NCBI GenBank assembly: GCA_024691085.1 | Contig: JAILNX010000025.1 | Coordinates: forward strand, 16,723-80,722 | Length of the DNA stretch: 64,000 bases | Source of the DNA: Clostridiales bacterium | GTDB lineage: Bacteria > Bacillota > Clostridia > Christensenellales > CAG-138 | Reading direction: 5' to 3' | In this document: in pieces, positions 8,848 through 61,351 of the stretch | How the letters are laid out: every line of letters starts with the position of its first letter | How positions within the stretch are numbered: the first letter of the stretch is position 1 | Program-made: the position numbers and the translations under genes | The notes under the pieces: generated by a model | What the model was told of the DNA's origin: nothing | What the model saw: the letters and a program-made list of their open reading frames with translations, nothing else | Database searches by the model: none

Positions 8848-10044
8848 ATGAAGATACTGTATTTCGATCTTAATATGGGCGCGGCGGGGGATATGCTCGC
8901 CGCGGCGCTGACTGAGCTTCTGCCCGATCCCGAGGGGTTCGTAAAAAGGCTCAACGCACTCAACATCCCCGGCGTGGAGTTCGTCCGCGAGCCTTCCGAA
9001 AAATGCGGCATACTCGGCACGCATATGTCCGTCCGCGTGAACGGCGAGGAGGAGCACGAGCATCATCACGACCACGACCACGGGCATCACCATGAGCATC
9101 ACCACTCGGACCTCGGGTCGATAGGGAAGATCGTCGAGGGACTCGATATCCCCGAAAACGTAAAGAAGGACGTAATGGCCGTCTACCTGCTCATCGCCGA
9201 AGCGGAGAGCGCGGCGCACGGCAGGGAGGTGACCGAGATACACTTCCACGAGGTCGGCACGATGGACGCCGTCGCGGACGTGACCGCCGTCTGCCTTCTT
9301 ATGAACGAGATAAAGCCGGACGCGGTATTCGCGTCGCCCGTCCACGTCGGCGCGGGACAGGTGCGCTGCGCGCACGGCATACTGCCGGTCCCCGCTCCCG
9401 CCACGGCATACATATTGAGGGACGTTCCGATCTACGGCGGCGCGATCAGATCCGAGCTCTGTACGCCCACCGGCGCGGCGCTTATCAGGCGCTTCGTATC
9501 CCGCTTCGGGGATATGCCCGTGATGAGAGTGGAAAAGATCGGCCTAGGCATGGGCAAAAAGGACTTCGAGGCGGCGAACTGCGTCCGCGCGATGCTCGGG
9601 GAGAGCGAAGAACGCGGCGGCGATATCGTCGAGCTTAAGTTCAACGTCGACGATATGACGGGCGAGGAAGTCGGCTTCCTTACGGAGACGCTTTTTGAAA
9701 ACGGCGCGCTCGAAGTGTTCGACGTTCCCGTCAGCATGAAGAAATCCCGCCCCGGAACGATGATGACGGTGCTTATTAAGGAAGAGGACAGGGAAAAGCT
9801 CCTTAAGCTCATATTCCGCCATTCGAGCACTCTCGGCGTCCGCGAGTACCACCCCGTTCGGCATACGCTTTCAAGGCGCACGGAGACCGTCGACACCCGC
9901 TTCGGCGGCGTGAGGATGAAGGTCTCCGAGGGCTTCGGTGTCACAAAGACGAAGTACGAATACGAGGATCTCGCCCGCATCGCAAGGGAGACGGGCATGA
10001 GCTTACCGGAGGTCAGAAAAGCGATCGATGAGAGAGAAGTATAA
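8848..10044 (+). CDS. larC: Nickel insertion protein LarC
   Basis: N-terminal MGAAGDM motif and His-rich stretch HEHHHDHDHGHHHEHHH. Confidence 0.85.
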   Translation: MKILYFDLNMGAAGDMLAAALTELLPDPEGFVKRLNALNIPGVEFVREPSEKCGILGTHMSVRVNGEEEHEHHHDHDHGHHHEHHHSDLGSIGKIVEGLDIPENVKKDVMAVYLLIAEAESAAHGREVTEIHFHEVGTMDAVADVTAVCLLMNEIKPDAVFASPVHVGAGQVRCAHGILPVPAPATAYILRDVPIYGGAIRSELCTPTGAALIRRFVSRFGDMPVMRVEKIGLGMGKKDFEAANCVRAMLGESEERGGDIVELKFNVDDMTGEEVGFLTETLFENGALEVFDVPVSMKKSRPGTMMTVLIKEEDREKLLKLIFRHSSTLGVREYHPVRHTLSRRTETVDTRFGGVRMKVSEGFGVTKTKYEYEDLARIARETGMSLPEVRKAIDEREV

Positions 10045-27177: not shown

Positions 27178-27996
27178 TCAATAGCCTATGGGAACCTTCA
27201 GAAGCATCTCGAATATAGGCTCAAGAGCGTCCTTATCGCCGCTCGTCAGGAATAAGACCTGCGGATCGGGCGCAAGCTCCGGGTCCGCCGAAATGCCGTT
27301 CGCGTTAAGCACGCGCTTAAGCTGGCGGGCGGTGCCGGCGTTGCCGTCGAACAGGCGGCATTCGCCCGTAAAATGCATGGAGGCGTAACGTGATATCGCG
27401 GGAGCGATGAAGGGGAAATGAGTACAGCCCAGCACGATGCCGTCGATCTTCGCGCCTTCAATGAAGGAAAGCCGCTCGGACAGGATATCGTCGAAGGCGG
27501 TCTCGCCGATCTCGCCCATTTCGACGCGCTCGACTATGCCGGGGCAACCCACGTTGATTATCCTCGCGGGATCGGGCATGCGGCTCTGGAGCGCGCGGTA
27601 GCGCGAGAGCTTCGTCGTGGCGAGGGTCGCGAGCATCAGTACCTTGCCGTCGCCGGGCATGGCGCAGGCGGGCTTTATCGCGGGCTCGACCGAAACGACG
27701 GGGACGCTCAAACGCTCGCGCAGCACGTTTATCGCCGCGCTCGTCGCGGTATTGCAGGCTACGACAAGCGCCTTCACGCCGCGGTCGACGAGGCTTTCGG
27801 CGGCGTTCTCGGCCAAAAGCAGTATCTCCTCCTCGCTCCTCGAGCCGTAGGGGGCGTTTTTGTTGTCGCCGTAATAGATAAAGCGCTCCGAAGGAAGCTC
27901 AACAAGAGCGTTCCTCAAAAAGCTCACTCCGCCGAAGCCGGAGTCGAAAACCCCGACCGGCCGCGGATCGTATTCTGTTTTCGGAGCTTCGGTCAT
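27178..27996 (-). CDS. murI: Glutamate racemase
   Basis: DSGFGG, VVACNTATS and VLGCTHFPF motifs. Confidence 0.9.
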   Translation of the reverse strand: MTEAPKTEYDPRPVGVFDSGFGGVSFLRNALVELPSERFIYYGDNKNAPYGSRSEEEILLLAENAAESLVDRGVKALVVACNTATSAAINVLRERLSVPVVSVEPAIKPACAMPGDGKVLMLATLATTKLSRYRALQSRMPDPARIINVGCPGIVERVEMGEIGETAFDDILSERLSFIEGAKIDGIVLGCTHFPFIAPAISRYASMHFTGECRLFDGNAGTARQLKRVLNANGISADPELAPDPQVLFLTSGDKDALEPIFEMLLKVPIGY

Positions 27997-29516
27997 TCTT
28001 CTTTTATCTGTTCCGGCCCCTTCAGCCTGTCGGCGTATTCATTCAGCTTGTCGAGGAATATCGCGGCGGCGAGCATATCGGCGGCGCCTCCGCAGTTGAT
28101 ATTGCGTTCTATAAGCTCGCGGTCGAACACGACGACCTCGTTGAGACGCTTCGAGAGGGGCAGAGCGGAGATCTCCGCCGCGCGTTCGCGGACAAAATCG
28201 GCGCCCTCCGCGCCTGCGCGGGAGTACGCGTTGGTGTCGTAAAGCTCCGCCATAATGCCTATGAGCGCGAGCGCGTAGCTCGCGTTGTCGTCAAAGCCCA
28301 TCAGCTTGAACCCGAGTATCCTGCGGTAGGCGTTCACCGCGGCGGGGAAACCGGCGCGCGCCTCGGCGTCCGCGCCGAATACCTCCTTGCCTTCGCCGAA
28401 CTTCTCACGCGCGTCCGCGCCGTGAGTGCCGCGGCCGGGCTCGGGACGGAGGAGCGCCATGCGCTTCGCCTCGGCGATTATGTCGAGGGGCTGACAGCTC
28501 TTTCCCTCGGCGGCGAGCTTCGCGAAAGCCGATACCAGAAGTCCCAGGCAGAATATCGCGCCCTTGTGGGTGTTCACGCCGCCCGTTGCTTCCTTCATGC
28601 GCGTTTCCGCCTCGACGCCGAGAAGCGTGAGCCTCGTCATAAGGCTCGCGCCGTGCTCAAGCTCGCAGGACTCGTGGGAGGGACAGTCGGCGCAGTTCAC
28701 ATGCTCGTCGACGGAGCAGCCCTCACCGTGACCGGATTCGGGCGTGTCCTTGTCGGCGGCGTTGTACGCCATAAGATAGTAATAGGGACGAAGCGCGTCG
28801 GCGCTCTTTATAAAGAGCGAAATGTCCATATCCGCGTTCGCACCGTTATTGTTCTGGTCGACGAGCCCCGCCTTCGGGGTGGTCATGACCTCCGAAACGA
28901 GGGCGGAATAGGCCGCCATGCCCGCCGCGTAGGATATCGCCTCGCGGAGGAGCGACTCGGTCTTTTCTTTAAGTTCGTCAAGGGAATGCGTTCTGCTCCT
29001 CGCGCACTCGGCGGCGGGACGGGAACAGATGAGGCACTTTCTCGGCTTAGGACGCACGAGCTTCACGCCGTCCGTGCCGATTACGTCGACGTCGAAAAGA
29101 CGCGAAAAGCTCATCGCATCCTCGACCTTCACCGCGACGGCCTTTATGAGCTTCGCGTTCAGACCCTTATACTGGAGGAGCGCCTCGCAGCCCGTCTTCC
29201 GGACGGAATACTCCTCGTGGACGAGCTCGGCGTTGAACCGTGACAGCGCCTTTTTAAGCTCGCTTACGCCGACGTTGAAGCAGACCTCCAACGCCTTCGA
29301 ATACTTTACGGCGCCCGCGGCGTTCATCGTGAACGATATGACGGGGAGGGCGTTTTCCTTCAAAAGCTCCTCCTGCCTTTTCGCGCGCCTTTCGCGGCAT
29401 GCCGCCATCTCATCAACGGAAACGGGGCTCGCCTCGATTTCCTCTGAGTGATGTGAATGCGAACAGCCGTGCGCGCATACGGCGCAGAGCTTGTCGCTGC
29501 ATTTGAACTCTTCCAT
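27993..29516 (-). CDS. citXG: CitX-CitG fusion (holo-ACP synthase / triphosphoribosyl-dephospho-CoA synthase)
   Basis: N-terminal half has a CitX-like ISFTMNAAGAVK block. The C-terminal half is CitG-like. Sits at the end of the cit operon. Has an extra Cys/His-rich N-terminal tag. Confidence 0.75.
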   Translation of the reverse strand: MEEFKCSDKLCAVCAHGCSHSHHSEEIEASPVSVDEMAACRERRAKRQEELLKENALPVISFTMNAAGAVKYSKALEVCFNVGVSELKKALSRFNAELVHEEYSVRKTGCEALLQYKGLNAKLIKAVAVKVEDAMSFSRLFDVDVIGTDGVKLVRPKPRKCLICSRPAAECARSRTHSLDELKEKTESLLREAISYAAGMAAYSALVSEVMTTPKAGLVDQNNNGANADMDISLFIKSADALRPYYYLMAYNAADKDTPESGHGEGCSVDEHVNCADCPSHESCELEHGASLMTRLTLLGVEAETRMKEATGGVNTHKGAIFCLGLLVSAFAKLAAEGKSCQPLDIIAEAKRMALLRPEPGRGTHGADAREKFGEGKEVFGADAEARAGFPAAVNAYRRILGFKLMGFDDNASYALALIGIMAELYDTNAYSRAGAEGADFVRERAAEISALPLSKRLNEVVVFDRELIERNINCGGAADMLAAAIFLDKLNEYADRLKGPEQIKEE

Positions 29517-29561
29517 CTTTATCTCCTGACGCGCCGGATAACGAATGCCGGCGGATAGCTT

Positions 29562-30533
29562 TTATTCAATGTGTTCAAGATACTTAAGCGTCCCCTCGGG
29601 AACGAGATCGCGCACGGCGGCGAGATCACCTCTGTCCAGAGCTTCGCGGACGCGGCTCGCGCTTATCCCGCGGAGCCTCTCGAGCTCGACGACCTCCACC
29701 CCCATACGGGGCAGCAGCCTCTTCATGATCCCGTTATAGCCGTTCGTGACGGGCGAATACGGCTCCGTGCCGACGAACCTTTTCGTGATGTTGAGCTTCG
29801 GGGCGATCCTCTCGCCGAAAAGCGTCAAGTCGAGCGCCGCGTAGACGCTCTCGGCGTCCGCGCCTTCCTTTAAGAAATAGGTCGGGAAGGTGGCAAGGCT
29901 TATCATGTAGTCGCCGCTCGGGATGACGTGAACGTTTTTTAAGTCCTTCGTCCCGTTCTTCACAAGCCGTATCCTGTCCTCGAACGGGAAGCGGGACGCG
30001 TCCTCGCTGACGACGAATACGTAAAGGTGGTCGACCGCCTTCGCCGCGGTCTCGATAAGATACCTGTGCCCCAGCGTGAAGGGATTGCAGTTCATGACGG
30101 CGGCGCCGACAACGCCCTCAAACCTCTCGACCGAAGCAAGCCAGCGGTCGAGCCCCGTCCTTGAGTTTTCCATAAAGCAGACGTCGCGCGTGGCGGCAAG
30201 GGTGTAAAAGCCTATGCCGCGGAAGAGCATTTCATTCGACGCCTTAGTAAACAGAAAGAGCTTCGTTATGCCGCGCCGCATCGCCTCCGAGACCAGCTCG
30301 GAAACGACGGAAAGCGCCGCGCCCTCGCCCTGAAGACGGGGGTCGACGGCGATGTATTTCAAAACGTTCCCGCACAGACTGCCGTTCGCGAGTATCTCGG
30401 ACGCATCCGAAACGAGCTGCACGGTGTAGTCCGCGCCGCCCTCGTACTTAAGGCCCATTTCCTTAAGGAATGCTTCTGTTTTTTCAAGGCGCGGGCCCGA
30501 AAGCTCCGCGCAGCGGGAAACGTACCAGTCCAT
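29562..30533 (-). CDS. citC: [Citrate (pro-3S)-lyase] ligase
   Basis: NCNPFTLGHRYL motif. Start set at MDWYVSR, which matches the E. coli CitC spacing to that motif. The ORF-track start at 30590 is a TTG with no RBS. Confidence 0.8.
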   Translation of the reverse strand: MDWYVSRCAELSGPRLEKTEAFLKEMGLKYEGGADYTVQLVSDASEILANGSLCGNVLKYIAVDPRLQGEGAALSVVSELVSEAMRRGITKLFLFTKASNEMLFRGIGFYTLAATRDVCFMENSRTGLDRWLASVERFEGVVGAAVMNCNPFTLGHRYLIETAAKAVDHLYVFVVSEDASRFPFEDRIRLVKNGTKDLKNVHVIPSGDYMISLATFPTYFLKEGADAESVYAALDLTLFGERIAPKLNITKRFVGTEPYSPVTNGYNGIMKRLLPRMGVEVVELERLRGISASRVREALDRGDLAAVRDLVPEGTLKYLEHIE

Positions 30534-30601
30534 TTTGATCCCGTTCAATAATACGCGCCGGAAGACGTGCGTCCGTCCTCCGGCGCGCAATGGTAATGAG
30601 T

Positions 30602-32143
30602 TTAGTCCGCTACCTGCCTGATGACGTCGATAACGGAGTTGTCCCTATACATAAGCACGCCGACGATCCTGTCGGTGTACTTGATGGGCTCGGGAGTGCC
30701 CGCGATCCTCTCCGCGCGGTCGCGGAGCTTTTCTATGGTGGTCACGGGGAGGCCCGCCTCGACGAACTTCTCACGAAGCTCGGGACGGGCGGGATTGACC
30801 GCGATGCCCTGGTCTGTAACGACGACGTCGACGGTCTTGCCCGGGGTGCAGATGGTGTTGACCTTCGTGCAGACGGTGGGGATGCGTCCGCGGAGCAGGG
30901 GGCATACGACGATGGTCATGCTCGCGCCCGCGGCGGTGTCGGGATGTCCGCCGACAGCGCCCCTTATGACGCCGTCCGAGCCGGTCATTACGTTGACGTT
31001 GAACTCGGTATCGACCTCAAGCGCGGAGAGTATGACGAAGTCGAGCTGGTTGACGGCCGCGCCCTTGTTCACGTAGCTTGCGTAGTACGAAGCGTCGATC
31101 TGCTGATGGAAGCGGTTGTTCTTGACGGAGTTCGCGGCGATAAGGTCAAAGCTCTGCACGTCGAGGATCTTCTTTACGAGGCCCTCCTCGTGCATCTGGA
31201 CGATCTGGCCGGTGATGCCGCCCAAAGCGAAGCGGCACTTGATATCCTGCTCGATCATGTATTCGCGGAGGTACCTCGCGACCGCGAGGGACGCGCCGCC
31301 GGAGCCCATCTGCATGGAGAAATTGTCCTTGAAGTAGCCGGAGGCGACGATCGCCTTCGTCGCGTACTGGGCGATGAGGAGCTCCTTGGGGTTCTTGGTG
31401 AAGCGGGTAGCGCCGCTCATGATGCCGTTGGGATCGCCGATATTGTCCACCTTGACCACGTAATCGACCTGGCTTTCGGGAATGCCGAAGGGGGTGTTCG
31501 GGAAGGAGACGAGGTGGTCGGTGATGATAATGCATTTGTCGGCATAGAGCGCGTCGAGCTTGGCATAGCCGAGGGAACCGCAGCAGGAGCCTTCCTCGCT
31601 GTCGCGGTTATAGCCGTTGGCGTTGCCGTAGGGGTCGCAGGAGGGCGCGCCGAGGAAGGCGACGTCGATGTGCAGCTCGCCGGTCTCGATGGCCGCCGCG
31701 CGTCCGCCGTGGGAGCGGAATATGACGGGGAAGTCCATCAGTCCGTGGGATACCGCGTCGCCGAGCTTGCCGCGCAGGCCGCTGGTCTCGATGTGCTTGA
31801 TAACGCCGTTCTTGATGTGGTCGATGAGCGGCCAGTGACAGTCGGTCAGGGAGCTTGCCGCGAGGGTGAGGTCCTTGATGCCCATCTTCGCGATGACGTC
31901 CATGACCATGTTGACCACGTAGTCGCCGTTTCTGAAATGATGGTGGAAGGAGATCGTCATGCCGTCCTTAAGACCGACGCGGCGGATCGCCTCTTCGAGG
32001 CTCGGGAGGACCTTCTTCGAGTGCTGCTGGCGCTCGTCGAAGCTTACGGGATCCTTCTGCCAGAGATTCTTCTCGTCGTAAACGCCGTGACAGGCGGAAA
32101 CCTCATTGATATGGGGAATGGAATTGAAATCGAACTCGCTCAT
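30602..32143 (-). CDS. citF: Citrate lyase alpha subunit (citrate CoA-transferase)
   Basis: 513 aa, in the position between citE and citC. Confidence 0.85.
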   Translation of the reverse strand: MSEFDFNSIPHINEVSACHGVYDEKNLWQKDPVSFDERQQHSKKVLPSLEEAIRRVGLKDGMTISFHHHFRNGDYVVNMVMDVIAKMGIKDLTLAASSLTDCHWPLIDHIKNGVIKHIETSGLRGKLGDAVSHGLMDFPVIFRSHGGRAAAIETGELHIDVAFLGAPSCDPYGNANGYNRDSEEGSCCGSLGYAKLDALYADKCIIITDHLVSFPNTPFGIPESQVDYVVKVDNIGDPNGIMSGATRFTKNPKELLIAQYATKAIVASGYFKDNFSMQMGSGGASLAVARYLREYMIEQDIKCRFALGGITGQIVQMHEEGLVKKILDVQSFDLIAANSVKNNRFHQQIDASYYASYVNKGAAVNQLDFVILSALEVDTEFNVNVMTGSDGVIRGAVGGHPDTAAGASMTIVVCPLLRGRIPTVCTKVNTICTPGKTVDVVVTDQGIAVNPARPELREKFVEAGLPVTTIEKLRDRAERIAGTPEPIKYTDRIVGVLMYRDNSVIDVIRQVAD

Positions 32144-32144
32144 G

Positions 32145-33035
32145 TTATATCTCCTCCACGGTCATGGTCTTCGCGCGCTCAGCCATCTCGAGGAGGTACT
32201 GAGCCCTCGCGACGACGGGCTTGTCGATCATCTTGCCCTTGAGGGAAGCGACACCGGAACCCCTCGCGTTGGCCTCGGCGATGGCCTCCATAATGGCGCG
32301 GGCTTTGGCGAGATCCTTCTCGGACGGGGTGAATACGGCGTGCAGGGGCGCGATCTGACGGGGATTGATGACGGATTTGCCGTCGAAGCCCATCTTCCTT
32401 ATCATGGTCGCCTCGGCGATGAAGCCTTCCTCGTTGTTGACGTCGGAATAGACCGTATCGAGAGCCATGATGCCGGCCGCCTTGGCGGCGTTCACGATCA
32501 TGCCGCGGGCGAACATAAGCTCGATGCCCTCGGGGCTCCTCGTGGTCTTAAGGTCGGTAACGTAGTCCTCGGCGCCGAGGGCGATACCGATGAGGCGCTT
32601 CGACGCGAACGCGATCTCCCTCGCGTTCAGAACGCCGTTCGCGCTCTCGATGGCGGCCATCATGCCGGTGGAGCCGACGGGGATGCCCGCCTCGCGCTCG
32701 ATCCTCTCGATCTCGCGCTCGCACTCGACAACATCCTTCGCGCTGTCGGTCTTGGGGAGCCTGATGACGTCGGGACGCGCGCGGACGATCGCCTCGAGGT
32801 CGGCAACGCCGAGCCCGGAGGACAGGTCGTTTATGCGTACGACGAGCTCCTTGGAGCCGTAATGAAGCTTGGTGAGGGCCTTATAGACAAGGAACCTCGC
32901 CGCGTCCTTCTCGGTGATCGCGACGGAGTCCTCAAGGTCGAACATTATTGAGTCGGAGCCGTAAATATGGGCGTCCCTTATCATGCCGGGGTTATTGCCC
33001 GGCACAAAAAGCATACTTCTTCTTAATCTGCTCAT
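32145..33035 (-). CDS. citE: Citrate lyase beta subunit (citryl-CoA lyase)
   Basis: 296 aa HpcH/HpaI-type aldolase fold opening (RRSMLFVPGNNP). Adjacent to citD and citF. Confidence 0.85.
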   Translation of the reverse strand: MSRLRRSMLFVPGNNPGMIRDAHIYGSDSIMFDLEDSVAITEKDAARFLVYKALTKLHYGSKELVVRINDLSSGLGVADLEAIVRARPDVIRLPKTDSAKDVVECEREIERIEREAGIPVGSTGMMAAIESANGVLNAREIAFASKRLIGIALGAEDYVTDLKTTRSPEGIELMFARGMIVNAAKAAGIMALDTVYSDVNNEEGFIAEATMIRKMGFDGKSVINPRQIAPLHAVFTPSEKDLAKARAIMEAIAEANARGSGVASLKGKMIDKPVVARAQYLLEMAERAKTMTVEEI

Positions 33036-33334
33036 TTCGCCTTGACCTCGTTCCAGACGTACTCGGTGCTTTCGGCAGAACGGTATGCGGCGGCGAGCGT
33101 CCTTGCCGCCACGGTGCAGTCCAGAGCGCCCTTGTCGACGGCGTTGACGTAAGCCCTGGTAACGCCTAACTCGGAAAGAGTCTCACGGATGACCTTTTCG
33201 ATCTGTTTTCCGTACTGCTGCATGACGGCGCTCTCGAGCGTAAGCTCTATGCCTTCCGTCTCCTTCGGTTCGATCCTGACGATAATATCGCTGGATTCCA
33301 TCGTTCCGGCAACGCCGGGCTTCTTGATTTCCAT
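33032..33334 (-). CDS. citD: Citrate lyase acyl carrier protein (gamma subunit)
   Basis: MEIKKPGVAGTMESSDIIV carries the prosthetic-group serine context. 100 aa. The tracked ORF extends further upstream without support. Confidence 0.85.
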   Translation of the reverse strand: MEIKKPGVAGTMESSDIIVRIEPKETEGIELTLESAVMQQYGKQIEKVIRETLSELGVTRAYVNAVDKGALDCTVAARTLAAAYRSAESTEYVWNEVKAK

Positions 33335-33521
33335 TACGAAATTGACCTCCCGTTTAAGTATGCTTGAGCCTGCCGGCGGGGGTATGGATACCGTGCCGGC
33401 CGTCCTCCTTATATGGTAACAATTTTTTGTCCGTTTTTCAAGAGCGAAACCGTATCTTTTTTGCTTATTTGCCGTTCGCGGGACAGAATGTGACAAATTG
33501 ATTTCAGATGGGGCGATACGG

Positions 33522-33549
33522 TTGACAAGTAAAAAATGATGCGTATAAT
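33522..33549 (+). promoter_or_regulatory. Promoter of the ribozyme-nagB-glmM transcript
   Basis: TTGACA, 16-nt spacer, TATAAT. Confidence 0.55.
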
Positions 33550-33595
33550 ATTATGGTTAAGAAAACCGGGTCCCCCCATGAGGTGACGGGGGACG

Positions 33596-33742
33596 CGGTC
33601 AGCGCCGGGCCCTTACAAAACGGGTGACGAGGACGGCAGTCATCGAAAGATTCGGCGGATGCTGCCGCGGCGAATGTTCGGCAGGCCGTGAGCGGAAGAG
33701 CAAAAAGCGTAATAAAAAGCGTAACAGAGGCTTCCGCGCAGC
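33596..33742 (+). ncRNA. glmS ribozyme: glmS-type glucosamine-6-phosphate ribozyme
   Basis: Cleavage-site context A|GCGCC at 33601/33602. Core GUGACGAGGACGGCAGUCAUCGAAAGAUUCGGCGGAUGCUGCC matches the conserved GACGAGGA..UAUCGAA..UUCGGCGGAUGCC blocks. GCCGUGAGCGG and a GCGGAAG/CUUCCGC P4-like stem follow. Confidence 0.85.
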
Positions 33743-33771
33743 CGGACAATATTTTAAGGAGATTTATTGAA

Positions 33772-34563
33772 ATGCGTGTTATTATACAGGACGATTATGA
33801 AAAGATGAGCCTTTGGGCGGCGCGCTATATTGCGAATAAGATCAATAACCATAAGGAAAACCGCCCCTTTGTTCTCGGCCTTCCTACGGGCTCGAGCCCC
33901 ATCGGCGTCTACCGCGAGCTTGCCCGTATGAACAGGGCGGGCGAGGTTTCGTTCAAAAACGTCGTCACGTTCAATATGGACGAGTATCTCGGACTTCCCC
34001 ACGAGCATGACCAGAGCTACTGGTACTTCATGCACGACAACTTCTTCGATCATCTCGTCGATATGAAGCCGGAGAACATCAACATTCTGAACGGCATGAC
34101 CGACGATCCCGAGGGCGAGTGCGAAAGATATGAGGAGAAGATCGCCTCTTACGGCGGCATCGACCTGTTCATGGGCGGCATCGGCGTCGACGGTCATCTC
34201 GCCTTCAACGAGCCGTATACCTCTCTTTCCTCCCGCACGGGCGTCCGCAGCCTTACCACCGACACCCGCATCGTCAACTCCCGCTTTTTCGGGAACGATC
34301 CGGAGAAGGTTCCCGCTCAGGCGCTCTCCGTCGGCATCGGCACGGTAACGGATTCGAAGGAGGTCCTCGTTCTCATCAGCGGACACAACAAGGCGCGCGC
34401 GCTTGCCGCGACCGTCGAGGGCGGCGTCAGCCAGAAATGGACCTGCTCCGCGCTCCAGATGCACAATGCTGCGATCATCGCCTGCGACGAGGCCGCCTGC
34501 GGCGAGCTGACCGTCGATACTTACAAGTATTTCCTCGACATCGAGAAGAACGAGAGGCTGTAA
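33772..34563 (+). CDS. nagB: Glucosamine-6-phosphate deaminase/isomerase
   Basis: [24 protein letters not shown] opening and [13 protein letters not shown] active-site block; 263 aa. Confidence 0.9.
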
Positions 34564-35223
34564 ATGTACGCTATTACCGATCTTTACGACCTTGACCATA
34601 CCCTGGCCGCGGATTACCTTAAAAAGTTCACCTACCCCTGGGAGGCCTTGAAGGGAATAAAGGACTTTATCCTCGAACTCGGGCCAACCCTGGGAGAGGA
34701 CTACGAGGAGGTCTCGGAGCACGTTTGGGTGCATAAGACCGCGAAGGTGTTTCCGTCCGCGTATCTCGGCGCTCCCTGCATAATCGGTCCGGAGACCGAG
34801 GTCAGGCACTGCGCGTTCATCAGGGGCTCCGCTCTCGTCGGCGCGAACTGCGTCGTCGGCAACTCCGTCGAGCTCAAGAACGTCATTCTCTTCGATCACG
34901 TGCAGACGCCGCACTACAATTACGTAGGCGACTCGATACTCGGCTATTACAGCCACATGGGCGCGGGCTCCATCACGTCGAACGTCAAGTCCGACAAGAA
35001 GCTCGTCGTCGTGCATAACGGCACGGAACAGATCGAGACGGGCATAAAGAAGTTCGGCGCGATGCTCGGCGATCACGTCGAGGTCGGCTGCAACGCCGTG
35101 CTGAATCCCGGCACGGTCATCGGCAGGAACTCCAGCGTCTATCCCACCTCCTGCGTACGCGGCGTCGTCCCCGAGAACAGCATCTGGCGCGACAACGGCG
35201 AAGTCAGAAAAAGGCATGAGTAA
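34564..35223 (+). CDS. Hexapeptide-repeat (left-handed beta-helix) transferase, GlmU C-terminal-domain-like
   Basis: Repeated [LIV]G-x4 hexapeptides through residues 70-200. No nucleotidyltransferase domain. Start abuts the nagB stop. Confidence 0.5.
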   Translation: MYAITDLYDLDHTLAADYLKKFTYPWEALKGIKDFILELGPTLGEDYEEVSEHVWVHKTAKVFPSAYLGAPCIIGPETEVRHCAFIRGSALVGANCVVGNSVELKNVILFDHVQTPHYNYVGDSILGYYSHMGAGSITSNVKSDKKLVVVHNGTEQIETGIKKFGAMLGDHVEVGCNAVLNPGTVIGRNSSVYPTSCVRGVVPENSIWRDNGEVRKRHE

Positions 35224-35245: not shown

Positions 35246-36592
35246 ATGGGTAAATACTTCGGTACCGACGGCTTCCGCGGCGAAGCCAACAAGAACTTGA
35301 ACTATGAACACGCGGTCAAGATCGGCCGCTATCTCGGCTGGTACTACGGCGCGAGACTCGGCAAAAAAGCGAAGGTCGTCATCGGCAAGGATACGAGGCG
35401 TTCGAGCTATATGTTCGAATACGCTCTCTGCACCGGTCTTATGGCTTCCGGCGCCGACGCGTACATCATGCACGTCACCACCACGCCGTCCGTCAGCTAC
35501 ATCGCCCGCGTGGACGATTTCGACTGCGGCATCATGATCTCCGCGTCCCATAACCCGTACTACGACAACGGCATTAAGCTCCTTAACTCCCACGGCGAGA
35601 AGATGGACGAGGAGACCATTTTAAAGGTCGAGGACTACATAGACGGCGTCGGCGAGGTGCCCCTTGCCGAGCGTGAGAACATCGGCCGCACCGTCGACTA
35701 CGAGGCGGGCAGGAACCGCTATATCGGCTACCTCATCTCCATGTCGAAATACAGCTTCAAGGACAAGAAGGTCGGTCTCGACTGCGCGAACGGCGCGTCG
35801 TGGATGATCGCGAAGGGCGTTTTCGACGCTCTCGGCGCGAAGACCTACGTCATCAATAACGAGCCCGACGGAACGAACATCAATACCGACTGCGGCTCTA
35901 CCCATATCGACGGCTTGAGGAGATTCGTCGTCGAGAAGGGTCTCGACGTCGGCTTTGCGTTCGACGGCGACGCCGACCGCTGCCTCTGCGTGGATGAGAA
36001 GGGCAACGTTGTCACGGGCGATCACATCATCTATATCTACGGTCTCTACATGAAGGAGCGCGGCAAGCTTCTGAACAACAAGGTCGTCACCACCGTTATG
36101 TCGAACTTCGGTCTCTACAAGGCGCTCGACGCCGCCGGCATCGAGTATGAAAAGACCAAGGTCGGCGACAAGTACGTCTATGAGAACATGGTCAAGAACG
36201 GCCACCGCATCGGCGGCGAGCAGTCCGGCCATATCATCTTCACCAAGTACGCGACGACCGGCGACGGCATCCTGACGAGCCTCAAGATGATGGAGGTCAT
36301 GCTCGCGAAGGGCAAGCCCATGAGCGAGCTTGCGAAGCCCGTCGTGTTCTATCCGCAGGTGCTGAAGAACGTCCGCGTAAAATCGAAGCCCGACGCGCAG
36401 AACGATCCCGACGTCCAGGCGGCGGTGAAGAAGGTCGCAGACGACCTCGGCGATACCGGCCGCATACTCGTCAGGGAGTCCGGCACGGAGCCCGTTATCC
36501 GCGTCATGGTCGAGGCCGACACCAAGGAGATCTGCGAGAAGTACGTGGATTCCGTCATCGAGGTCATAAGGGCGAAAGGACACATGGAATAA
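35246..36592 (+). CDS. glmM: Phosphoglucosamine mutase
   Basis: SASHNPYYDNGIK phosphoserine loop; 448 aa. Confidence 0.95.
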   Translation: MGKYFGTDGFRGEANKNLNYEHAVKIGRYLGWYYGARLGKKAKVVIGKDTRRSSYMFEYALCTGLMASGADAYIMHVTTTPSVSYIARVDDFDCGIMISASHNPYYDNGIKLLNSHGEKMDEETILKVEDYIDGVGEVPLAERENIGRTVDYEAGRNRYIGYLISMSKYSFKDKKVGLDCANGASWMIAKGVFDALGAKTYVINNEPDGTNINTDCGSTHIDGLRRFVVEKGLDVGFAFDGDADRCLCVDEKGNVVTGDHIIYIYGLYMKERGKLLNNKVVTTVMSNFGLYKALDAAGIEYEKTKVGDKYVYENMVKNGHRIGGEQSGHIIFTKYATTGDGILTSLKMMEVMLAKGKPMSELAKPVVFYPQVLKNVRVKSKPDAQNDPDVQAAVKKVADDLGDTGRILVRESGTEPVIRVMVEADTKEICEKYVDSVIEVIRAKGHME

Positions 36593-36611
36593 GGCAGCGA
36601 GAAAAATGAAA

Positions 36612-36655
36612 AGAGGCTTTCTCCGGCGAAAACGTCCGAGAAAGCCCTTTTTTTA
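36612..36655 (+). terminator. Hairpin terminator after glmM
   Basis: GGCTTTCTC...GAGAAAGCC stem followed by a T7 run. Confidence 0.6.
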
Positions 36656-36665
36656 AAGTGCGGCA

Positions 36666-37655
36666 TCAATATATTGGAGTACCTATCACCGCGCCGTCGG
36701 CGGTGCAGATCATGGTGTAAACGGTATCGTCATACCCGATAAAAACACTGTCGGTCGGGTGACTGAAACTGTTCGAGACGTCAAGGTAAGCGCATTTCAG
36801 GAGCGCGCCGTCCGGCCTGTATTCTCTCACGGAATACCTTACGGAGACGAGCTCATCGACGGTCTCGTATTCGTAAACTCCGACAATGATGTCTCCGTTC
36901 ATACACTGCCTGAGGAAGCGAACTGTGGTCTCCTCCCCGGTGTCGAGCAGGTACTCCGCAGCGTTCACGGTTATCCTTTTAACGCTCCCGCTTTGATCGA
37001 CGAGGATCCTTCCGTCCGCCGTCCATTCCTCGGCGGTGAGGCTGTATGAATAGCGGAAAAGACCGTGATCGTAAATCACCAGACTGTTGCCCGTGCCGTC
37101 AAAGAAAATCTGTGAAACGTCCGCGCCGGTGAGCCTTTCGGGGAGAGGGAGCTCGTCGTGCGATTCGGAGCCGTCCTCATATACCGTTATTGTTTTAGAG
37201 AAATAATCGACGACATAGAAGCGCCCGTCGGCATAACAGAAATGAAAGGGGCGGACCGTTCCCGTAAGCGGAACAGAGCCTGTCACGCTGCCGCTCAATA
37301 TAAGGATACGGGCCTTTACCGTGTCCAGCACAAAAACCGTATCTCCCATGACGATAAACGCCTCGGGCCCGGCATTGCCGTCGTCATACGCCGCGTATCC
37401 GACGTCGTTCTCCCCGTCGCCCGCCGGAACGGTGTAAAGAACGCCGGTGCCCGTGCTGTAAAGAGGATCGACTGATGGAAGAGCTGTCGCAATCGGTGTT
37501 GTTTGATCTGTGATCTTTTGAGTGCCGGCCGGTGAGACTGAAGGAGTGCCGGAGGGCATAGGAGTAATACCGGCATTATTAATAGGAACGGCACGGCAGC
37601 ACGCCATAGACGTGAGAAGTAAAAGTCCGAAAAAAATGATGATGATCCGTTTCAT
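36666..37655 (-). CDS. Secreted/lipoprotein-like protein of unknown function
   Basis: Signal-like MKRIIIIFFGLLLLTSMACC, Pro/Ser/Thr linker, then a beta-rich body. Start at the ATG 6 nt after a GAGGTG RBS. Confidence 0.6.
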   Translation of the reverse strand: MKRIIIIFFGLLLLTSMACCRAVPINNAGITPMPSGTPSVSPAGTQKITDQTTPIATALPSVDPLYSTGTGVLYTVPAGDGENDVGYAAYDDGNAGPEAFIVMGDTVFVLDTVKARILILSGSVTGSVPLTGTVRPFHFCYADGRFYVVDYFSKTITVYEDGSESHDELPLPERLTGADVSQIFFDGTGNSLVIYDHGLFRYSYSLTAEEWTADGRILVDQSGSVKRITVNAAEYLLDTGEETTVRFLRQCMNGDIIVGVYEYETVDELVSVRYSVREYRPDGALLKCAYLDVSNSFSHPTDSVFIGYDDTVYTMICTADGAVIGTPIY

Positions 37656-37673
37656 TTTTAACACCTCGATTCT

Positions 37674-37997
37674 TTAATTGTCTAATATGCAAGAATAGGG
37701 ATCCTCTCTCTTTCGGTTATTGCAGCGATTTTTATTATTGATTATTACTTCTTCAATTCGTCCGCAGACGGTACACTTATATTTGTTTCCATAAGGAACA
37801 ATTGTTTTAATCTTTGTTTCGTTATTTATCAATAACGAAACTTGTTCGGCCCAAGAGTTATTAGCTATATCAAAAGTAAAACAGTCAAGGTCGTGAGTAT
37901 ATAATACAATTAGAACAGAAAGTAATGCCGGCAGTATTATTTCACTATATAAAACCCCTTGTATTATAATACTATCATAACTATTGCGTTCTGACAA
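37674..37997 (-). CDS. Doubtful ORF in AT-rich DNA (one TM segment, CTVCG zinc-ribbon-like motif)
   Basis: 107 codons open but no in-frame ATG. The only start is a TTG that lies at or before the predicted transcription start of the adjacent consensus promoter. Confidence 0.3.
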   Translation of the reverse strand: MSERNSYDSIIIQGVLYSEIILPALLSVLIVLYTHDLDCFTFDIANNSWAEQVSLLINNETKIKTIVPYGNKYKCTVCGRIEEVIINNKNRCNNRKREDPYSCILDN

Positions 37998-38001
37998 TTA
38001 T

Positions 38002-38031
38002 ATTATAATGCTTTTTGCCTTGGGTTGTCAA
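38002..38031 (-). promoter_or_regulatory. Consensus promoter reading leftward into the insert
   Basis: Minus strand reads TTGACA, 18-nt spacer, TATAAT. Confidence 0.5.
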
Positions 38032-38042
38032 GATTATTACTG

Positions 38043-38209
38043 TCATCTTCACCAAGTACGCGACGACCGGCGACGGCATACTCGTCAGGGAGTCCGGCAC
38101 GGAGCCCGTTATCCGCGTCATGGTCGAGGCCGACACCAAGGAGATCTGCGAAAAGTACGTGGATTCCGTCATCGAGGTCATAAGGGCGAAAGGACACATG
38201 GCCGAGTAA
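38043..38209 (+). pseudogene. glmM: Internally deleted duplicate of the glmM 3' end
   Basis: 38043-38079 equals glmM 36234-36270. 38080-38201 equals glmM 36466-36587 with one mismatch. The junction falls in a shared GCAT, giving an in-frame 195-nt deletion. The tail differs (HMAE* versus HME*). Confidence 0.85.
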
Positions 38210-38217
38210 AAAGAAAT

Positions 38218-38248
38218 AAAAAAAGGAGAGCTGCGGCTCTCCTTTTTT
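38218..38248 (+). terminator. Rho-independent terminator after the glmM fragment
   Basis: AAAAAAAGGAGAGC / GCTCTCCTTTTTT. Confidence 0.7.
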
Positions 38249-38256
38249 GTATCGTT

Positions 38257-60089: not shown

Positions 60090-60182
60090 GGAGGAGTCGC
60101 CTAGTTTGGTCGAGGGCGCACGATTGGAAATCGTGTAACGGTCATAAGCCGTTCGAGAGTTCGAATCTCTCCTCCTCCGCCA
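60090..60182 (+). tRNA. tRNA-Ser(GGA): tRNA-Ser, anticodon GGA, CCA encoded
   Basis: Acceptor GGAGGAG/CTCCTCC. Anticodon stem CACGA/TCGTG with loop TTGGAAA. Long variable arm. T-arm GAGAG-TTCGAAT-CTCTC. Confidence 0.9.
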
Positions 60183-61134: not shown

Positions 61135-61180
61135 TGCAAAGCACCTCTTTTGTCTACCGGACAAAAGAGGTGCTTTGCAA

Positions 61181-61351
61181 TGATATCCGTTCCTGGCGGA
61201 ACGGGTGATATACCTTCGGTATGATATCCCCTGCGGGGATGATATACGCTTCGCGTATAGAGGAACGGATATCATATCATTCAGACGCGAAGCGGCTGTA
61301 TATCATGCGCGGCGTCAGCCGCGTATATCATATCGCGAAGCGATATATCAT
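61181..61351. repeat. Opposed arrays of a G(G/T)ATATCAT 9-mer interleaved with short GC hairpins
   Basis: Four sites as ATGATAT(C/A)C at 61181, 61206, 61222 and 61240. At least five inverted sites (ATATCA) at 61269, 61274, 61300, 61325 and 61345. The last abuts the -35 of the next promoter. Confidence 0.75.

Follow-up and report, generated by a model that had tools for sequence, protein, structure and literature searches.

A glmS-class ribozyme ahead of a nagB, acetyltransferase and glmM operon in rumen and gut Clostridia, with a possible role in ammonia-dependent hexosamine synthesis

Among ribozymes that depend on a metabolite, the textbook example is the glmS ribozyme, in which glucosamine-6-phosphate (GlcN6P) acts as catalytic cofactor, and it is treated as an antibacterial target because it was thought to be exclusive to glmS. 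McCown et al. 2011 reportedly placed all but two of 463 representatives in glmS mRNAs. Here we describe a ribozyme of this class in a 64,000-nucleotide (nt) stretch from a Clostridiales bacterium (assembly GCA_024691085.1, contig JAILNX010000025.1, positions 16,723 to 80,722; below we call this whole stretch the window and count positions from its first letter), where it precedes genes for the glucosamine-6-phosphate deaminase/isomerase NagB, a stand-alone left-handed beta-helix (LbH) acetyltransferase and the phosphoglucosamine mutase GlmM. With the canonical glmS ribozymes of B. subtilis, B. anthracis and T. tengcongensis it shares the cleavage context A/GCGCC (the slash marks the cleavage site), the core blocks and helices P1 to P4.1, as well as the site in the 5' untranslated region (UTR) right after the promoter and, presumably, the GlcN6P cofactor and the feedback logic. 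It is unlike them in the genes that follow it, in an extra leader hairpin, which we call P0, and in that glmS genes adjacent to such operons in relatives carry no ribozyme. Full-text literature searches, with McCown et al. 2011 outside their reach, returned no description of a glmS ribozyme upstream of nagB.

GlcN6P is also said to have been described, by Passalacqua et al. 2017, as a modulator for another self-cleaving ribozyme, drz-Fpra-1. This RNA of Faecalibacterium prausnitzii is the nearest parallel to the present locus, being likewise a self-cleaving ribozyme that lies 5' of glmM in a gut Clostridium, and it has been discussed as a case of possible metabolite-dependent regulation (PMC6765202). 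It differs in class, being hepatitis delta virus (HDV)-like and not glmS. As for the enzyme, NagB-family proteins can make GlcN6P from fructose-6-phosphate (Fru6P) and NH4+ when they are highly expressed and ammonium is abundant. The Gnp of Giardia is an anabolic GlcN6P deaminase during encystation, and E. coli glmS suppressors with derepressed nagB, according to what Vogler et al. 1989 are said to have found, use NagB anabolically. These are mutant or eukaryotic special cases, whereas here nagB stands in a conserved biosynthetic operon with a predicted product-sensing ribozyme. To our knowledge, anabolic NagB has not been known as part of a ribozyme-regulated operon.

The ribozyme and the genes behind it

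A scan of the whole window with Rfam cmscan gives a significant match to RF00234, the glmS ribozyme, at 33590-33747 on the plus strand (56.6 bits, the gathering score being 37; E 2.2e-10). The match spans the full model (1-167) and is among the three above-gathering Rfam matches in the window. We place the core of the ribozyme at 33601..33737 (+), on the evidence of this match, the invariant core and the paired helices P1, P2, P2a, P3, P4 and P4.1. The original prediction for this DNA had named the hallmark blocks of the class, and all of them are found in the window sequence: the cleavage context, with A-1 at A33601 and G+1 at G33602; the core blocks GACGAGGA, AUCGAA, UUCGGCGGAUGC and GCCGUGAG; a P2 helix CGGCAG/CUGCCG; and a P4 of 7 base pairs (bp), GCGGAAG/CUUCCGC. 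The promoter that had been placed ahead of the leader is there too. It is of sigma-70 type, TTGACA (33522-33527) and TATAAT (33544-33549) agreeing with the consensus at 12/12 positions across a 16-nt spacer (33522..33549, +), and transcription would start at about 33556, some 45 nt 5' of the cleavage site. The usual setting in the 5' UTR of glmS is not what is found here, the first gene 3' of the ribozyme being nagB. The ribozyme is of the glmS class by every structural criterion tested; its genetic context and its P0 accessory differ. On sequence grounds we regard the class of this RNA as almost certain, and it would be expected to cleave itself in a GlcN6P-dependent manner.

Selection on the fold can be judged from an alignment of 57 representatives, which shows no change in AGCGCC, GACGAGG, UCGA, UCGG(C/U)GG and some other positions. 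The longer block UCGGCGG(A/G)UG, present in the window, is at least nearly invariant in these sequences. The canonical nested helices P1, P2, P2a, P3, P4 and P4.1 were written by hand and their pairs counted, because RNAalifold missed P2 and P2a and gave two spurious pairs beside P1. Standard pairs fill 94.3% of the helix cells, a value that falls to 30-48% once the 3' strand of each helix is shifted by 1-3 columns. Two-sided (compensatory) changes are seen in 18/30 pairs, and 0/500 shuffles match the observed pairing values, on every measure. Covariation occurs in five of the six helices, P2a being invariant; the strands of the pseudoknots P2.1 and P2.2 are invariant as well, and covariation would be little informative there.

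One could argue that the RNA is an inactive, decayed glmS ribozyme, left behind after a rearrangement and without regulatory role. Its P1 is short, and its P4.1 scores poorly against the Rfam model, with non-canonical pair marks in the window. However, P4.1 is GCAG/CUGU or GCGG/CCGU in relatives, and the GCGU/GCGU of the window pairs with two G-U wobbles, so compensatory changes keep this helix. Given also that the core nucleotides are invariant over 57 species, that covariation extends to five of six helices and that the element keeps its place between promoter and first gene across loci, a decayed relic is very unlikely, and we attach next to no weight to this explanation.

The three genes behind the ribozyme lie on the same strand, abutting or 22 nt apart. 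The ribosome-binding site (RBS) of nagB, AAGGAGA at 33756..33762 (+), stands 9 nt ahead of the ATG. nagB itself (33772..34563, +) encodes a glucosamine-6-phosphate deaminase/isomerase of 263 amino acids (aa) that matches TIGR00502 with 378.9 bits against a cutoff of 236.9. It is followed by the gene of the LbH acetyltransferase (34564..35223, +; 219 aa) and by glmM (35246..36592, +; 448 aa), whose product has four PGM_PMM domains and matches TIGR01455 with 539.5 bits against a cutoff of 447.55. Folding and sequence place a strong intrinsic terminator, which closes the operon, at 36615..36654 (+), with the stem GGCUUUCUC...GAGAAAGCC and then U7; its folding free energy (dG) is -24.5 kcal/mol (z -5.4; equally stable shuffles 0/200). 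Its loop is long, for which reason it escaped a simple scan for terminators. These profile matches bear out the earlier reading that the ribozyme leads nagB, a GlmU-C-terminal-like LbH acetyltransferase and glmM, not glmS.

The LbH protein has Hexapep repeats and matches the C-terminal half of TIGR03992, the archaeal-type GlmU (positions 214-393 of 393; its 142.7 bits fall short of the full-length cutoff), and also that of TIGR03991, the "alternative bacterial" GlmU, again below the full-length cutoff. Among solved structures it comes closest to ST0452 of Sulfolobus tokodaii, in the acetyltransferase domain (2ggo/5z09, residues 236-390, E 1.6e-22), with which it shares a conserved PH..YVGDS segment; the next-closest structures are bacterial GlmU C-terminal domains. 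A profile search finds no nucleotidyltransferase domain in it. The protein may acetylate glucosamine-1-phosphate (GlcN1P).

NagB is of the E. coli, hexameric type. It is 57% identical to E. coli NagB, the C-terminal helix region included, and its structure matches are PDB 7lqm (2.6e-101) and 1cd5 (1e-95). The catalytic residues D72, D141, H143, E148, R172 and K208, numbered as in E. coli, show no change in 81/81 NagBs of the clade. In the same 81/81 proteins S151 is replaced by T, R158 by G and K160 by R, and T161 is in most cases D or N. The role ascribed to these four positions in the E. coli enzyme is to bind the phosphate of the allosteric activator N-acetylglucosamine-6-phosphate (GlcNAc6P). 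If these roles are correct, the catabolic feed-forward activation by GlcNAc6P would be lost, which would fit a non-catabolic job of this NagB; the argument is suggestive only.

Recurrence in related Clostridia and the leader hairpin P0

Scanning the NagB protein against one genome per species gave at least 540 relatives. For the best 80 of them (loci L001-L080) we viewed about 6 kb either side of nagB and called ribozymes by a core regular expression together with Rfam. The NagB proteins of these 80 are 90-93% identical to that of the window, their GlmM proteins 81-90%. All belong to assemblies of Clostridia from rumen or gut that carry names such as Oscillospiraceae, Lachnospiraceae, Ruminococcaceae, Saccharofermentans and Christensenellales, the taxon labels being those of the submitters and inconsistent. 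So high an identity across 80 species would be expected of a housekeeping enzyme; the flat NagB identity despite several family labels could come from strong constraint, from coarse taxonomy or from transfer of the operon. The 80 include a cultured isolate with the same arrangement, Ruminococcaceae bacterium YRB3002 (L051), which offers a testable system.

A glmS ribozyme lies 5' of nagB on the same strand in 58/80 loci. The order of genes after it is most often that of the window, nagB-LbH-glmM (23 loci, plus three cut by contig ends and three with glmS further on), followed by LbH-nagB-glmM (12 loci, plus three with glmS just 5' of the ribozyme). LbH-glmM-nagB and nagB-glmM are found in three loci each, glmM-nagB in one, and nagB alone in six, plus one that is cut directly after nagB. 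The first gene after the ribozyme is nagB in 39/58. Where nagB-alone loci were sampled, the neighbours are unrelated (transketolase subunits and an alanine symporter, for example), and no nagA, sugar transporters or kinases stand beside them. The variable gene order, the loci with nagB alone and the predominance of nagB as first gene indicate that the ribozyme is linked to the gene set, and above all to nagB. Recurrence upstream of the same genes in so many loci, taken together with the compensatory changes, is more than chance.

A scan of metagenomes with the core pattern gave mostly chance matches in GC-rich soil contigs, and five true ribozymes. Three of these are linked to glmS (L122, L137, L169), one is linked to a nagB operon (L126) and one is truncated; five are too few for estimating the frequency of each gene context. 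In viral contigs, 0/120 pattern matches were true ribozymes.

Some of the ribozymes in the related loci are enlarged. The match at L077 4957-5233 is a nagB-operon variant of 277 nt with a large insertion, at L015 903-1070 P1 is longer by about 50 nt, and insertions of 20-50 nt are seen in the P3 loop in L014, L016, L021, L054 and L060.

The hairpin P0 occupies 33565..33599 (+) in the window (dG -22.9 kcal/mol, z -2.8), ends 2 nt before the cleavage site and carries a Shine-Dalgarno (SD)-like GAGGUGA (33580-33586) in its apical loop. We compared 59 ribozymes of nagB operons, namely that of the window, those of 57 species loci and the metagenomic L126, all finds of the core pattern. A hairpin is present in 59/59, formed by the 35-40 nt that directly precede the cleavage site, and in 57/59 its 3' strand ends no more than 2 nt from A-1. 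The hairpin covaries: its basal 5-bp helix comes in 33 distinct versions, such as AAUAG/CUAUU, AACAG/CUGUU, AUCGG/CCGAU and AUGAUC/GAUCAU, the third and fourth pairs alternating among C-G, U-A, G-C and A-U. At the same time an SD-like GGAGG, GGAG or GAGG lies inside P0 in 59/59, usually in the unpaired apex. In the Rfam glmS consensus these positions are unpaired, and P0 is absent from the three glmS-linked metagenome ribozymes while present in L126, in what is a small comparison set.

STAB-SD-type elements block 5'-to-3' decay of mRNA. P0 resembles these elements and the 5' stem-loop stabilisers of the Bacillus cryIIIA and aprE leaders in having an SD-like GGAGG without a consistent start codon after it and in being a hairpin near the 5' end; unlike them, it directly adjoins, on the 5' side, the site at which a ribozyme cuts, and cleavage would detach it. 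By analogy, our working idea is that P0 may be a stabiliser of the STAB-SD or 5' stem-loop kind, and that its loss on cleavage would give regulation a wider range. Should this be so, P0 would represent a new accessory module for the glmS ribozyme class.

Two other roles for the GGAGG of P0 were considered and rejected. It does not appear to compete with the 5' strand of P4 for the P4 3' strand, since P4 varies (GCGGAAG in the window, GAAAAAG in L065) while the SD-like motif is unchanged. Nor does it look like the RBS of a leader peptide, as no consistent start codon follows it (AUU, GUU, GUC, AUC). Additional hairpins occur between promoter and P0. At L014 5040-5080, and also in L016 and L021, a hairpin CGAAUGUG-N8-CACAUUCG with a U-run behind it resembles a terminator; it may act as a stem that stabilises the 5' end or as an attenuator. 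In numerous other loci (e.g. L004, L025, L043) a different small hairpin, GUUAU...AUAAC, takes this place.

Direction of the NagB reaction and rival explanations

The mechanism that we propose would work as follows. GlcN6P, once accumulated, would serve as cofactor for cleavage between A33601 and G33602, which would strip the 5' triphosphate end and the P0/SD-like hairpin from the mRNA. The remaining mRNA with its 5'-OH would be degraded by a 5' exonuclease of the RNase J type, and expression of all three genes would drop. RNase J1 reportedly degrades the cleaved glmS mRNA of B. subtilis, as Collins et al. 2007 are said to have found, and a later account likewise has the 5'-OH cleavage product of B. 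subtilis glmS decayed by RNase J1 (PMC6765202). We therefore consider repression the probable outcome of cleavage in the present operon. NagB would convert Fru6P and NH4+ into GlcN6P, GlmM would convert GlcN6P into GlcN1P, and the LbH acetyltransferase would convert GlcN1P into N-acetylglucosamine-1-phosphate (GlcNAc1P). Given three consecutive steps in one operon and a cleavage triggered by GlcN6P, the ribozyme would exert feedback control on an ammonia-dependent route to precursors of UDP-GlcNAc (uridine diphosphate N-acetylglucosamine), with the product of the first enzyme as the negative signal. The rumen and the gut are rich in ammonia; such a route would suit them, and amination by NagB would spare glutamine.

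GlmM and the GlmU-type acetyltransferase are biosynthetic, and around the operon no genes of N-acetylglucosamine (GlcNAc) catabolism were identified, with no nagA, transporter or kinase nearby. This makes the context of the operon an anabolic one. From that context we lean, with some reserve, towards a NagB that runs in the aminating direction here, as an NH4+-dependent GlcN6P synthase. The full chain, in which the ribozyme feedback-represses a NagB-led aminating module, is a reading of gene context to which we give slight preference. We put forward more tentatively, and would not insist on, the wider scenario in which the ribozyme moved from glmS to nagB in this clade, NagB, aminating with abundant free ammonia, became the principal regulated entry into hexosamines, GlmS was lost or kept as an unregulated or conditional back-up, and a P0 acquired by this ribozyme subclass protects the uncleaved mRNA until cleavage severs it, and so sharpens the switch.

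Several facts weigh against an operon that serves as the anabolic entry into this pathway. The uridylyltransferase step is not encoded in it. The equilibrium of NagB favours deamination. The NagB of A. muciniphila, an organism that lacks GlmS, could not form GlcN6P from Fru6P at physiological conditions (PMC5902328). In about 22/80 loci no ribozyme is present in the sequence examined, and some of these have the same three genes. Finally, glmS lies within 6 kb of the operon in 8/80 loci (L007, L014, L016, L021, L033, L065, L069, L079), and there NagB is not needed as the sole source of GlcN6P.

The loci of the last two groups deserve a closer description. Among those without ribozyme, at least four have a contig end no more than about 360 nt 5' of the cluster, and absence is not established for them; in several others the same three genes stand behind an ordinary promoter. 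Three, with the order nagB-glmM-LbH, contain the palindrome ACTCCTGCAGGAGT (L018 at 5863, L037 at 4299 and L072 at 1382), which is perfect, reads ACTCCTG(C/T)AGGAGT and overlaps a promoter-like TATAAA just 5' of nagB. This suggests a protein operator, with a repressor in the place of the ribozyme.

Of the eight loci with glmS, six also have a ribozyme-led operon. In L014, L016 and L021 glmS is immediately 5' of the ribozyme, with a separate promoter, TTGCAA-17-TATAAT, after the stop codon of glmS and ahead of the leader of the ribozyme. In L065, L069 and L079 it is 3' of glmM, beyond a terminator and a glycosyltransferase gene, and in L007 and L033, which have no ribozyme in the locus, it is directly 5' of nagB. 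Rfam scans of the eight loci found no ribozyme ahead of glmS, only ribozymes before the nagB/LbH/glmM operon. In the window itself a motif search and tblastn with the GlmS of a relative detect no glmS. It thus seems from these loci that NagB and GlmS routes would coexist in at least part of the clade, with the GlcN6P sensor on the NagB branch. The "GlmS-independent entry" of the original prediction is not supported in that form, being not general among the relatives.

It could be objected that GlmS, encoded elsewhere, supplies GlcN6P and that the ribozyme tunes the users of the pool, NagB acting as a near-equilibrium valve between Fru6P and GlcN6P. The glmS genes beside the operon in eight relatives are in line with this, as is the co-regulation of glmM and the acetyltransferase with nagB at most loci. 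Moreover, NagB is reversible, and its direction has been described as ambiguous between organisms (PMC5902328). We nevertheless find such an arrangement unlikely. Cutting the consumers of GlcN6P when GlcN6P is high would amplify the excess; the ribozyme precedes nagB alone in six loci, and nagB is the gene next to it in 39/58; and the neighbouring glmS genes are without ribozyme, so that the only GlcN6P sensor found in these loci is on the NagB branch. A different objection concerns the sign of the response. Cleavage might activate or stabilise the mRNA, for example by removal of an inhibitory P0, in which case GlcN6P would switch on a catabolic NagB along with GlmM and the acetyltransferase. 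Substrate induction would be logical, as each of the three is able to act on GlcN6P or on the compound made directly from it, and the conserved hairpin with its GGAGG loop is indeed what cleavage would remove. Against this, cleavage by a glmS ribozyme has only one characterised outcome, the RNase J1 decay of the 5'-OH product (PMC6765202), and reading the 57-sequence alignment by eye reveals no pairing partner for P0 in covariation with the RBS downstream or with P4. No nagA or transporters were found near the operon, and the activator site for GlcNAc6P that catabolic NagB typically has would be altered, if the residue roles given above are correct. In our opinion this activating role is improbable. 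The six loci with nagB only, the absence of a ribozyme from glmS and the lack of catabolic partners weigh against both objections.

Returning to feedback repression of an aminating NagB, we note that the earlier statement that product-triggered shut-off "only makes sense" with a biosynthetic NagB stands in part. The content of the operon makes the aminating role the most coherent one, but "only" is too strong: activating cleavage for consumers of GlcN6P is still a rival, and the A. muciniphila enzyme is a counter-example to anabolic use of NagB.

A clade in which the ribozyme is found on nagB-glmM operons, and not on the adjacent glmS, suggests that the RNA follows the step that supplies GlcN6P and not one particular gene. 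This is a genetic argument for NagB as a biosynthetic, ammonia-assimilating enzyme in ammonia-rich anaerobic habitats. If it is true, reconstructions of amino-sugar and nitrogen metabolism would change for the Clostridia of rumen and gut, in which nagB routinely receives a catabolic annotation and glmS is added by gap-filling. The arrangement of ribozyme and nagB gives a handle on ammonia-dependent hexosamine synthesis, the physiological claim being drawn from context alone.

Surroundings of the operon and minor observations

Upstream of the ribozyme operon, and divergent from it, is a citrate lyase cluster (27178-33496, -) with citD, citE, citF, a citC ligase gene and a fused citX-citG. This complete cluster is accompanied by a gene of the Asp/Glu racemase family. 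The housekeeping genes argS, pheT and clpB lie further out from the operon.

A relic of the 3' end of glmM is found 1.5 kb 3' of the intact gene (region 36590-38250). Positions 38043-38082 match 36234-36273, positions 38071-38201 correspond to 36457-36587 at 98%, and the relic carries its own stop codon and terminator (about 38215-38250). The approximately 1.45 kb between glmM and the relic hold two open reading frames on the minus strand, 36666-37664 (332 aa) and 37674-37997 (107 aa), for which no significant match was found in Pfam, NCBIfam, PHROGs or PADLOC, and in 37550-38000 GC falls as low as 32-37%. It looks as if DNA had inserted into the end of glmM and brought along a replacement 3' end.

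L075 has a second, short-type NagB paralogue (9205-9945; 246 aa, 44% identical) in which D141 is N and the C-terminal helix is missing. It lies 1 kb 3' of the LbH-nagB-glmM cluster of that locus, beside a DAGK-like kinase and a thioredoxin.

Far from the operon, the window contains a Gut-1 RNA (RF01706, 56.7 bits) with three tandem hairpins at 61178-61250, about 1 kb downstream of a tRNA of 90 nt with a long variable arm at 60090-60179.

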